Assembly: GCA_963738545.1 (NCBI GenBank)
Contig: CAVTXA010000004.1
Coordinates: 8,391 to 72,390 of the forward strand
DNA: 64,000 bases
Source: an uncultured Acidimicrobiaceae bacterium
GTDB taxonomy: Bacteria > Actinomycetota > Acidimicrobiia > Acidimicrobiales > RAAP-2
Direction of reading: 5' to 3'
This document shows positions 12,632 through 24,789 of the stretch, piece by piece (positions within the stretch are counted from its first letter, which is position 1; each line of letters opens with the position of its first letter). The notes beneath the pieces were generated by a model that was given only the letters and a program-made list of their open reading frames with translations, was not told where the DNA came from and ran no database searches. The position numbers and the translations under genes are program-made.

Positions 12632-13583
12632 TCACGGGGCCCGTTGCGCCAGCTCGGCCGCCCAGTAGTCGGCCGGCGGAAGGGCACCGAACGGATTGGG
12701 CAGACCGGCGTCGGTGACGTAGACGTATCCGGCGCCCCGCTGGCGGCTGAGGTCCATGGCGTGCTCCATCTCGCCGGTGGAGATGGCCCCGTAGACGATG
12801 TGCCAGATCTGTTCGGGTCCGGCCGGCGTCCACGTCAGCGGCTCGAAGTCCTGACCCACGGCGTCGGGGGCGCCGGTGTAGTTGGCGTAGCTGCCCTCGA
12901 AGGTGACCAGGACATCGGCGGCCGCCGCGTAACAGCGCGGGACGGCGATCCCCGGGTTGAGCACCGTAACCGCACCGGGATCGGCCACCCGTAGACGGTC
13001 CCCGAGCGTCCGGTAGGCGTCGGCGTACCGGTTCGATCCGGCCGTCGGCCCACAGGCGCTGGTCGACTCGTCCAAGAAGATGCCACCGAGGTCGGACCCG
13101 TAGAACCGGTACCACGCATCGATGTCCGCTTGGATCTGCGATAGCCAGGCCTCGGGGCCGAACGCTCCCGAGCGCGTGGGCAGGCCGTCGGCGTGGGCGA
13201 ACGACGGGCTACCGAGGTAGCCCGTGTCCACATAGCCGAGCACTCGGCTCCCCGACGCATGGGCGCTGTGGATCACCGCCGCCCAGTCCGCATTGGGTTG
13301 TGTGCCGGGTCCATTGGCCACGTTGGCCACGACGATCCCGACCGCCCCGGGCGGTGACGCCGCCGAGCTGCTCCCACGAGGAGGCAGCGTGCACCGGATC
13401 GACATAGGCCGGCACGGCCAGACGCTGGACGACGGAGGGCGGGCCGGAGGCGGCGGTCGAGTGGTCGGCGATGGTCGGCGATGGTAGCAAGAGCCAGGCC
13501 ACGGCCACGGTGAGCGAGGCCACGACCACGGCCACGGTCACCACCAGTGCGGCCATGCCGAATGCGCTCCTGCTCCCGTGCAT
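12632..13583 (-). pseudogene. spherulin-4 family (GH135 / Sph3-type) secreted protein, split over two reading frames
   Basis: The N-terminal signal anchor plus 'LAVPAYVDPVHAASSWEQL' is in the frame of ORF 13209..13592. The rest ('GIVVANVANGPG..YVDTGY..GIFLDE..') is in the frame of ORF 12632..13405. The junction lies near 13340-13362 in a C/G run. The 952-nt length is not a multiple of 3. Confidence 0.6.
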
Positions 13584-13936
13584 CGCCGTCAACGGAAGCG
13601 CCGCCGTCGCTCCTCACCCATGATGCAAGCCTACGAACGGTCCCGTTCCGCTACTACCCCTGTTCTTCGGGACGCCCACCCCGGCGCTGACGTCCACCAC
13701 CCTGGCATTTGCCCCGCTCCCGATCGCTCGGCCCCAGGCGCGATGGCGGGTCCGTGACGCGAGACTGGTGACGGACAGGGCGAAGGGGCGCAGTGGCAGA
13801 GAACGCAAGCTGGTGCGGCAATCGTGGCCGCGGTCGTGCTCATCGTGGTGCTGGTGGCGTCCACCGCCTCAGTGGGGACCGCGCCGAGCCATCCGGATGC
13901 GGGGTCCGGGGGAGCCTCCACGGGCATCGGCGCGCC

Positions 13937-23300: not shown

Positions 23301-24789
23301 GGCCGGGATCACCTTCACCGACAACGGCAACGGCACGGCCACCATCGCCGGCGTCACCACCGCCGCCGCCGGGACCTTCCCCGTGTCCGTCTCCGCCACC
23401 AACAGCACCGGGAGCGTGGCCACACTGCCCCTGACGCTGACCGTGGCCACGTCGGGTCCCCCGACCGTCACCAGCGGTGCGACGGCGTTCTTCACCCTCA
23501 ACCAGGCCGGTGCCTTCGCTGTCACCACGAACGGAGCCCCCATCGCCGCCATCACCGAGGTCGGCTCCCTTCCCGCCGGGCTCACCATGGTCGACGAGGG
23601 CAACGGGGAGGCACTCATCTCGGGCACCCCGACCGCCACCGGCACGGCCAGCCTGGCCGTCACGGCGGCCAACGGTCAGACTCCGAATGCCACCCAGACC
23701 CTCGCCATCATCGTGGGGAGCGCGCCGGCGGTGACCAGTCCCACCGCGACCACCTTCGTGGCCGGGGCCCCGGGCACCTTCACCGTCGCCACCTCGGGCT
23801 ACCCCGCACCCTCGCTGGGTGAGACCGGGACCCTGCCGGCCGGGATCACCTGGACCGACAACGGCAACGGGACGGCCACGCTGGCCGGCTCGCCGGATGC
23901 GGTGACCACACCGACGGACTTCCCGGTCACCATCCAGGCCACCGACGGAACGGGCTCGGTCGTCCAGTCGTTCACACTGACGGTGGCACCGGCCCCGGCC
24001 AGTGGCGGCACCATCCCCCCCGTGGGCACGCCGCCTTCGGTCGCCACACCCACCCCTGCGCCCACCTCGGCGCTGGCCGGTGGGGACCGGTTGGCCGCCA
24101 CTCCCGACGGCCTGGGCTACTGGGTCGTGGGGACCAACGGTTCGGTCACCCCGTACGGATCGGCCACCAACTACGGCTCGATGGCCGGGCACGTCCTCAA
24201 CCAGCCCATCGTCGGCGTGGCCGCCACACCCGACGGCCGGGGCTACTGGCTGGTGGCCACCGACGGCGGGATCTTCAGCTTCGGTGACGCCCAGTTCTAC
24301 GGGTCCACCGGGAATCTCAAGCTGAACAAGCCCATCGTGGGCATCACCGGCACCCCGGACGGCAAGGGGTACTGGATGGTGGCCTCCGACGGAGGCGTGT
24401 TCAGCTTCGGTGACGCCCAGTTCTACGGCTCCACCGGGAACATCAAGCTGAACAAGCCCATCGTGGGCATGGCCTCCGACCCGGATGGGAAGGGGTACTG
24501 GCTGGTGGCCTCCGACGGTGGGATCTTCACCTTCGGTGACGCCCAGTTCTACGGCTCCACGGGCAACATCAAGCTCAACAAGCCGGTCATGGGCATGGCC
24601 GCCGACCGCACCGGTCACGGCTACTGGCTGGTGGCCTCCGACGGTGGGATCTTCACCTTCGGCGACGCCCAGTTCCACGGGTCGGGCGGGAGTGCCGGGC
24701 GCACCGCGGTGGGACTCATCGCCTCCCCCACCAGCCCGGGTTACGCCCTCATCGACCTCGACGGCACCCGGACCAACTTCGGGTGGTGA
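20332..24789 (+). CDS. secreted multidomain protein: Agd3/CE4-like polysaccharide deacetylase-type domain with an FN3-like insert, 4 Ig-like repeats, a Pro/Thr linker and a C-terminal 42-aa repeat array
   Basis: Signal peptide '[26 protein letters not shown]'. 'GQDVDDVF' and 'THTWSH' (DD and HxxxH) lie about 131 aa apart. FN3-like '[28 protein letters not shown]'. Repeats '[17 protein letters not shown]'. Repeats '[35 protein letters not shown]'. Start chosen at the ATG at 20332 (alternative 20344) after AAAGGA. Confidence 0.85.
   Translation: [1485 protein letters not shown]
22918..23991 (+). repeat. four tandem coding repeats of about 89 aa (bacterial Ig-like / 'putative Ig' type)
   Basis: Each unit contains 'TSA/GP..F..G....FTV.TTG.P...I.[21 protein letters not shown].P....G.....I.ATN..G...Q.FTLTV'. 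Confidence 0.75.
24223..24726 (+). repeat. four near-identical 126-nt (42-aa) tandem coding repeats, within a longer 5-6 unit array (24082-24786)
   Basis: Successive units align by eye with few mismatches. An example unit is gg(c/g)aaggggtactgg(a/c)tggtggcctccgacgg...ttcggtgacgcccagttctacggctccac. Confidence 0.85.

Follow-up and report, generated by a model that had tools for sequence, protein, structure and literature searches.

What is made by a group of genes that joins a PelF-type glycosyltransferase (GT), as used by bacterial Pel systems, to the deacetylase and hydrolase types of the fungal galactosaminogalactan (GAG) cluster, and has such a group been seen before? The question is raised by a locus in the 64-kb stretch of contig CAVTXA010000004.1 analysed here (the window; G+C content 70%), which comes from an uncultured soil actinobacterium of the Acidimicrobiaceae. 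A first-pass annotation, made from the letters alone, had found every functional class of the fungal five-gene cluster in the locus and had not recognised the gene set as a described system in actinobacteria. Open reading frame (ORF), Pfam and NCBIfam scans recover all of the genes that it had named, at or near the places given for them, and all five classes are indeed represented. The gene set is nevertheless not new: the locus belongs to the bacterial agd3 operon class, which was catalogued computationally in 2020 (Bamford et al., Nat Commun 11:2450, PMC7229062). Its proteins probably build a sticky, Pel/GAG-like polymer of amino sugars and de-acetylate it, and the reading that we favour, with reasonable though by no means complete confidence, is that of a Pel/GAG-like pathway to an extracellular polysaccharide that is partially de-N-acetylated, rich in N-acetylgalactosamine/galactosamine (GalNAc/GalN) and probably alpha-1,4-linked.

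A coupled operon facing an Agd3-like gene

The genes for the PelF-type GT, a membrane protein with 12 transmembrane (TM) helices, a short-chain dehydrogenase/reductase (SDR) and GlmS lie in this order on the minus strand and are one translationally coupled operon, as had been proposed, because TGATG stop/start overlaps join both the PelF/TM and the TM/SDR junctions and the SDR stop is separated from the glmS start by only 3 nt. Divergent from this operon lies the gene for a large secreted protein. The layout, taken from the ORF listing together with a frame analysis based on G+C content at third codon positions (GC3), is as follows.

18340..19836, minus strand: PelF-family GT4 with DUF3492 and GT1 parts, at the head of the operon (PF11997, NF038011)
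16940..18340, minus strand: 12-TM MOP-fold membrane protein with a cytoplasmic N-terminal helical domain, as predicted by AlphaFold2 (AF2) and Foldseek
16017..16940, minus strand: extended-SDR nucleotide-sugar epimerase, PelX-like (Pfam Epimerase)
14169..16013, minus strand: GlmS, the glutamine--fructose-6-phosphate transaminase that closes the operon (TIGR01135)
20332..24789, plus strand: secreted multidomain Agd3-like CE18/CBM87 de-N-acetylase, 1,485 aa (Pfam, profile, Foldseek)
19837..20331, no strand: divergent intergenic region of ~500 bp between the pelF-like and agd3-like genes, presumed to hold promoters
12632..13592, minus strand: Spherulin-4/GH135 (Sph3-like) gene with an N-terminal membrane anchor and a +1 frameshift near 13362 (Pfam, tblastn)
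about 13877..14146, plus strand: GH114 (Ega3/PelA-hydrolase-like) remnant, the C-terminal ~75 barrel residues only (Pfam)
9575..12511, plus strand: LAL-type regulator (AAA_16 ATPase + LuxR/GerE helix-turn-helix) (Pfam)

The large protein begins with a signal peptide (AAA/AS site) and carries DVDD at residues 270-273 and HTWSH at residues 404-408, the DD...HxxxH signature to which the first-pass annotation had drawn attention. Behind the signal peptide follow an alpha/beta/alpha plus CBM87 part, a carbohydrate esterase (CE) domain with a beta-sandwich insert of ~165 aa, an Agd3-like C-terminal domain, four He_PIG immunoglobulin (Ig) domains (65 bits, 4 stretches) and a putative repeat propeller of ~6 blades. 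The Pfam model CBM87_Agd3 is passed with 32-33 bits (cut-off 27.6). Searched against the Protein Data Bank (PDB) as a whole sequence, the protein matches titin Ig domains only, and Agd3 is reached via the family profile: a profile of 33 homologues gives a single match, 6NWZ (Agd3), with E 3.5e-11 in three collinear stretches; over the CE and C-terminal domains the order is kept, but the individual stretches are weak (8.5 and 9.8 bits). With an AF2 model of the N-terminal 873 aa (pLDDT 62.5, confident for the N-terminal/CBM part and the beta-sandwich only), 6NWZ is again the top match in Foldseek (E 9.7e-11), followed by the deacetylase NDST1. The large protein is the one deacetylase candidate of the locus, and chains of PelA (CE21) and PelA_DA (CE26) are found neither among the PDB sequence matches nor among the 50 Foldseek matches listed.

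The catalytic and metal-binding residues of Agd3 are D377, D378, H510, H514, R613 and H668 (PMC7229062). Their counterparts in the large protein are D272, D273, H404, H408, R654 and H733, and all six (CM1-CM4) are invariant in the 33 homologues. This conservation and the CBM87 match place the protein, as a sequence-based assignment, among Agd3 homologues that carry both CM1-CM4 and CBM87, and thus in the Agd3/CE18-like group to which the earlier suggestion had pointed.

The beta-sandwich, FN3-like by motif, occupies residues ~410-575 (window 21550-22060), directly after HTWSH, and is modelled with a pLDDT of up to 94. It is present in all 33 aligned 'long' homologues and in neither fungal Agd3 nor the short Agd3-like protein of Streptomyces californicus. 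At the other end of the protein (window ~23990-24789), about six 42-aa repeats belong to no Pfam family and weakly resemble the YVTN beta-propeller of the Methanosarcina S-layer protein 1L0Q (E 2e-4). Databases label the 'long' subfamily merely 'putative Ig domain-containing protein'. Five Acidimicrobiaceae loci (L019, L031, L032, L035 and L040; surveyed loci carry L numbers) hold two strong Agd3-like genes in tandem, the second copy, which lies downstream of the matched gene, scoring 924-1016 bits.

The SDR matches the Pfam Epimerase family with 104 bits, and its NAD motif (GANGFLG, at residue 8) and Ser/Tyr/Lys triad (Ser in GSAA, YGRTK at residue 140) are intact. Its best matches among solved structures are 6WJB and 6WJ9, which we take to be structures of PelX and which align over the full length (3-305 vs 5-309, E 3.8e-12). 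The entry 6WJB is cited in the paper that describes PelX, the UDP-GlcNAc C4-epimerase of Pel systems. On the GalE equivalog model the SDR reaches 52.5 bits, far under the cut-off of 262. GlmS, by comparison with TIGR01135 (761 bits) and NF001484 (779 bits), is an unambiguous equivalog, with dN/dS values of 0.07-0.12.

The PelF-family glycosyltransferase and its membrane partner

The sole GT at the locus is a soluble PelF-family GT4. It covers the DUF3492 model PF11997 almost end to end (154 bits, profile positions 1-267 of 268), followed by a match to Glycos_transf_1, and it passes the NCBIfam PelF model NF038011 with 172.6 bits (cut-off 100). An EX7E motif lies at residues 381-389, and sequence identity is 27-30% to proteobacterial PelF and 35-47% to PelF of Deinococcus, Streptomyces, Kocuria and Thermus. 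The combination of a GT4 domain with an N-terminal DUF3492 is that of the PelF of Pel systems, and these model matches assign the enzyme to the PelF family, bearing out its first identification.

The coupled membrane protein is a different matter. Its AF2 model (pLDDT 88.8, pTM 0.78) has 12 TM helices and a 68-aa N-terminal helical domain, and a conserved N-terminal domain of ~70-85 aa, predicted to be cytoplasmic, characterises the family. Foldseek ranks WzxE, MATE transporters and MurJ highest (prob 1.0, TM-score 0.44-0.52 over ~430-450 columns, 10-16% identity), so that the predicted fold is that of the MOP (Wzx/MATE/MurJ) class, a match at the level of fold only. PelG, too, is placed in the MOP superfamily, and the first-pass annotation had implied that the 12-TM protein stands for PelG. 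At the level of sequence this equivalence does not hold. When the protein was scanned together with 77 homologues, neither Pfam nor NCBIfam assigned PelG (PF16933) or any other family, whereas a genuine PelG scores 488 bits; a PDB profile search returned noise only; hhalign was negative against a single PelG sequence and gave a probability of 0.13 against an alignment of four; and a PelG hidden Markov model run over 78 related loci gave no significant match. The identification as PelG was accordingly rejected while the idea of a PelG-like role was retained, and the protein is PelG-like by position and fold class but outside the PelG family by sequence. Its own family is large, with at least 1,095 representative clusters found at E<1e-3.

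The PelF and TM genes adjoin wherever the two occur at one locus (36 of 36). A few loci (L062:8245-9927 and L078:16229-17545) have a PelF without a recognisable partner of the TM family; the next ORF in each encodes a hydrophobic protein of ~440-560 aa, which suggests still more divergent membrane partners. A 974-aa protein, P0285 (L085:830-3754), joins a complete PelF (DUF3492 + GT1) to a MOP-fold TM domain. This fusion was found on one 4.9-kb metagenome contig only and might reflect a frameshift across the overlapping stop and start, and we give it little weight as Rosetta-stone evidence.

We propose tentatively, and with somewhat less than even confidence, that the PelF-family GT and the MOP-fold family form a minimal synthase/exporter of two proteins, independent of cyclic di-GMP (c-di-GMP), that replaces the PelD-PelE-PelF-PelG complex in Actinomycetota and Deinococcota, with the N-terminal domain of the TM protein docking PelF. 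If true, this pair would offer a simpler, genetically tractable model for the synthesis and export of Pel-type polymers, and the minimal synthase would be paired with a 'long' Agd3 subfamily that has a domain inserted in its catalytic barrel.

Conservation and relation to described systems

We surveyed 76 genome loci and two contigs with hidden Markov model (HMM) and phmmer searches of six-frame ORFs, and counted partners within 10 kb in the 51 Agd3-like loci with adequate flanks. Cluster partners are present in 34 of these 51, in several actinobacterial lineages, in keeping with the co-conservation that had been predicted. PelF is seen in 25, and in eight further loci the fetched DNA stops at the TM gene, short of the expected PelF; the counts for the other partners are 30 (TM), 28 (epimerase), 28 (GH114), 26 (Spherulin-4), 13 (LAL regulator) and 12 (GlmS). 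The remaining 17 loci have no partner within this distance and are mainly on Streptomyces and Kitasatospora chromosomes; partnerless 'long' Agd3-like genes from these two genera, devoid of PelF, TM, epimerase, GH114 and GH135 neighbours, are those of L047, L048, L050-L052, L054-L056, L058, L063 and L068.

The closest genomes in a species-level genome collection are uncultured Acidimicrobiaceae metagenome-assembled genomes (MAGs) of the MFD series, with at most 89% identity; on this ground an origin from Streptomyces, which the G+C content had brought to mind, was rejected. Synteny is kept in relatives at 89% and 83% identity, and in the window the genes for PelF, the TM protein, the epimerase, GlmS and the 1,485-aa Agd3-like protein are all intact, with dN/dS values of 0.07-0.22; over three relatives the values for core genes span 0.07-0.26, which indicates purifying selection. 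The gene set recurs in several arrangements: MAGs with the labels Acidimicrobiales, Pseudonocardiaceae and Streptosporangiaceae carry it, and so do Kutzneria (for example sp. NPDC052558) and plasmids of Streptomyces and Deinococcus. A linear plasmid of S. californicus carries genes for an Agd3-like protein, PelF, TM protein, SDR, nucleotidyltransferase, epimerase, Spherulin-4 and GH114, with homology by hhalign at 100% for the Agd3-like and 99.8% for the TM protein, and a Deinococcus plasmid has a similar set. Three MAG contigs labelled 'Candidatus Melainabacteria' (L036, L039 and L057) also hold an actinobacterial-type Agd3-PelF-TM locus, at 57-59% identity, which probably points to errors of binning or labelling in these genomes.

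In most of the relatives that fall outside the window's subclade, two extra genes, for an SDR and an NTP_transferase, separate those for the TM protein and the epimerase (for example L014:4630-6447, L080:12983-14730 and L084:13034-14915). The extra SDR scores 458.6 bits on TIGR04180 (LegB NDP-GlcNAc 4,6-dehydratase), for which the cut-off is 475. Neither a dehydratase nor a nucleotidyltransferase gene was found within the 64-kb window, and glmS lies within the operon in the 12 loci noted above, all of which are labelled Acidimicrobiaceae or Acidimicrobiales. The window's subclade has lost the dehydratase and nucleotidyltransferase and gained glmS.

The LAL regulator (AAA_16, 56 bits; GerE, 49 bits) has dN/dS values against relatives of 0.20-0.29, and the 13 loci that it adjoins include the differently arranged L018, L065 and L078. 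It is probably a pathway-specific regulator of the cluster.

How does the locus relate to systems already described? Bamford et al. reported Agd3 homologues in 45 bacterial species, and Supplementary Data 2 of that paper lists Agd3, GT-B, TM, epimerase, GH135 and GH114 in Actinoplanes, Streptomyces lavendulae (entered as 'Agd3, GTB, TM, GH135, GH114'), Kytococcus, Conexibacter, Lechevalieria and Deinococcus/Thermus (PMC7229062). With these operons the window shares an Agd3 with CM1-4 and CBM87, an SDR epimerase, a cytoplasmic GT-B adjacent to a multi-spanning alpha-helical membrane protein, here encoded by overlapping genes, and co-located GH114 and Spherulin-4/GH135 genes, though in the window both hydrolase genes are damaged. 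It differs from them in several respects. The window's host class, Acidimicrobiia, is not in the lists; its subclade is without the second, LegB-like SDR and the nucleotidyltransferase ('GTA' there) and has gained glmS and the LAL regulator; and its Agd3, at 1,485 aa against 663-894 aa, has about double the length and carries the beta-sandwich insert after CM2, the Ig domains and the propeller. The name PelF is not used in the text and supplementary files examined. Parts of the set are already labelled in RefSeq, where proteins of S. californicus plasmids appear as pelF, spherulation-specific family 4 and endo-alpha-1,4-polygalactosaminidase. No experimental study of an agd3-PelF cluster in actinobacteria was found in the searchable literature.

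With the pelABCDEFG operon of Pseudomonas aeruginosa and the pelDEADAFG operon of Bacillus cereus the locus has in common a PelF-family GT4 followed by a translationally coupled 12-TM protein, and a PelX/GalE-type epimerase and a GH114-type hydrolase nearby. It differs in its membrane partner and in being without PelB, PelC, PelD and PelE: neither the annotation of the flanking genes nor tblastn over the 64 kb with PelD and PelE queries (two of each) gave a match, which agrees with the earlier reading, and no homologue of PelB, C, D, E or G was found in the window. Gram-positive Pel systems use PelD and PelE (PMC7112168). The deacetylase is of the Agd3 type (CE18/CBM87), whereas canonical Pel systems have CE21 (PelA) or CE26/CBM114 (PelA_DA) enzymes (PMC13254593), and regulation is probably by the LAL protein as against c-di-GMP in canonical Pel. 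The GlmS gene is inside the operon, as first seen, but a glmS gene beside pel genes is not unique: on a Burkholderia thailandensis plasmid (NZ_CP013412; L079:6562-16580) a canonical pel set (pelD-G) is followed by GH114, a second glmS and galE, which shows that genes dedicated to precursor supply are also found beside classical Pel loci.

The Aspergillus fumigatus GAG cluster (uge3, gtb3, agd3, ega3, sph3) and the locus have four kinds of protein in common: a deacetylase of the Agd3 type, in which both the three-domain core and the catalytic residues agree; Sph3 or its GH135 counterpart, anchored at the N-terminus; Ega3 or its GH114 counterpart; and an epimerase of the SDR family. Gtb3 is a large integral-membrane enzyme, whereas the synthase of the window is a soluble PelF-type GT4 with a separate, predicted MOP-fold membrane protein; GlmS is added and the hydrolases are defective. 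To the MOP flippases and exporters (Wzx, MurJ, MATE) the likeness is that of the predicted 12-TM fold, and the window's protein differs from them in its extra N-terminal domain and in having no Wzy polymerase or phosphoglycosyl-transferase gene alongside.

Cationic, partly de-acetylated GalNAc polymers such as Pel and GAG are major adhesins and matrix scaffolds, and the present results extend the Agd3/PelF-type system to uncultured Acidimicrobiaceae MAGs, mostly of one soil-survey series, where it runs without PelD, E and G and with a membrane partner from a distinct, unannotated family of predicted MOP fold. Since the architecture was predicted in 2020 (PMC7229062), current understanding is not overturned. 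The practical value lies in better annotation and in the cultured carriers, namely S. californicus with its plasmids (for example strain FDAARGOS_1209) and Actinoplanes SE50/110, which is listed in PMC7229062.

The proposed polymer and its alternatives

In the pathway that we propose, GlmS would raise glucosamine-6-phosphate and hence, via housekeeping GlmM and GlmU, UDP-GlcNAc, which the PelX-like SDR would convert to UDP-GalNAc. Polymerisation would take place at the membrane, by the cytoplasmic PelF-family GT4 working with the coupled 12-TM protein of predicted MOP fold, which may move the chain, or an intermediate linked to a lipid, out through the membrane. Once there, the chain would be bound via CBM87 by the secreted Agd3-like CE18 enzyme, which would remove some of the N-acetyl groups and leave a cationic, adhesive polymer. 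The Ig and propeller domains of the enzyme probably anchor it at the cell surface or in the matrix. GH135 and GH114 would normally trim or release the polymer, and transcription is probably under the control of the LAL regulator, and not of c-di-GMP and PelD as in canonical Pel. Homology, motifs and models show the family or fold of each protein, the catalytic residues that are kept, the coupling of the genes, their co-conservation and purifying selection, whereas the identity and linkage of the sugar, the part of the membrane protein in export, deacetylation outside the cell and regulation by LAL are inferred.

Both hydrolase genes are damaged in the window, a refinement of the first-pass annotation, which had seen a Spherulin-4 gene, a GH114 fragment and the LAL gene in the flanks; all three are there, the first as a frameshifted gene and the second as a deletion remnant. 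The Spherulin-4 gene (Pfam Spherulin4, 110 bits on the ORF 12632-13405) carries a single additional base near 13362 that L001-L004 lack, and the intact 308-aa orthologue of L001, aligned by tblastn, falls into two frames. As the C-terminal part still has dN/dS values of 0.20-0.26, the frameshift must be recent, if it is not an error of assembly. The source series presumably consists of long-read MAGs, so a single-base assembly error may be the cause. The protein has no match among PDB sequences at E<0.01 from which the catalytic residues of Sph3 might be mapped. The GH114 gene matches Glyco_hydro_114 with 49 bits over profile positions 139-215 of 231 only. Through an internal deletion at window 13826-13979 it is ~780 bp shorter than the intact 403-aa gene of L001/L003, the closest relative, in which the 308-aa Spherulin-4 is intact too; the missing part corresponds to profile positions 1-138, most of the catalytic barrel, the normal stop codon is gone and the ORF continues into glmS. 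An assembly error is unlikely here. The GH114 gene is also split in the relative L002/L005, and no further GH114 or GH135 copy was found within the 64-kb window.

Several observations weigh against a Pel/GAG-like product, or against its being made normally in this genome. On the Pfam model of the Agd3 catalytic domain (Agd3_CE, PF25115) the large protein reaches 14.6 bits (cut-off 27.6), and its CE domain is poorly modelled (pLDDT <50 for a large part of residues 260-410 and 610-780). The weak score is probably explained by the ~165-aa insert after CM2, and several homologues of the protein pass PF25115. For the membrane protein, neither Pfam/NCBIfam nor hhalign detects a relationship to PelG by sequence. 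In A. fumigatus Sph3 is required for GAG production, and with both hydrolase genes disrupted the window's copy may therefore be impaired. Finally, the ancestral product may have contained a 6-deoxy-N-acetylhexosamine and the 'epimerase' may originally have been a 4-ketoreductase, because the operons of distant relatives hold a LegB-like 4,6-dehydratase and a nucleotidyltransferase.

This last point leads to the alternative that we take most seriously, although we consider it unlikely: that the product is a different amino-sugar polymer, for example one rich in a 2-acetamido-2,6-dideoxyhexose (QuiNAc or FucNAc) or in GlcNAc, possibly a wall-associated glycopolymer, and that the SDR is, or derives from, a 4-ketoreductase. 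The extra dehydratase-like and nucleotidyltransferase genes of most related loci, including those of S. californicus and Deinococcus, speak for it, as do structure matches of the SDR to GDP-6-deoxy-D-mannose reductase (1e-9) and to a GDP-4-keto-6-deoxyhexose reductase. Yet in the window's clade, which is without these two genes, the SDR is still under purifying selection (dN/dS about 0.2), and its retention fits a stand-alone epimerase. Its best full-length structure match, moreover, is to the entries that we presume to be PelX. Against this alternative also stand the co-conserved families GH114, GH135 and CE18, each of which includes characterised enzymes with activity on alpha-1,4-GalNAc/GalN polymers (PMC7229062, PMC13254593).

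A smaller probability attaches to the idea that the window's copy is decaying or silent and no longer makes its normal polymer. The two hydrolase lesions, the split GH114 of the relative and the lack of a second copy fit such decay. We regard it as improbable, however, given that the operon and the Agd3-like ORF are intact and constrained and that the GH135 frameshift may be no more than a long-read assembly error. In B. cereus the loss of the Pel hydrolase leads to more biofilm, not less (PMC7112168). As for a chance juxtaposition of unrelated carbohydrate genes that form no functional unit, the 17 long Agd3-like loci without partners would fit it, but it is effectively refuted by the synteny survey: the set recurs across several MAG lineages, Kutzneria and plasmids of two genera, stop/start overlaps join the operon genes, and the architecture has been published independently (PMC7229062).

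No ORF with a coding GC3 signal was found in the intergenic region 19837..20331. The search for a sigma-70 consensus gave no match there, and at 70% G+C this promoter and terminator scan is uninformative. One flank of the cluster encodes an FGGY kinase, an S15 peptidase and an acyl-CoA ligase and the other a thiamine pyrophosphate (TPP) enzyme, a MarR protein, a major facilitator superfamily (MFS) transporter and KAS III, genes that are unconnected with polysaccharide synthesis.

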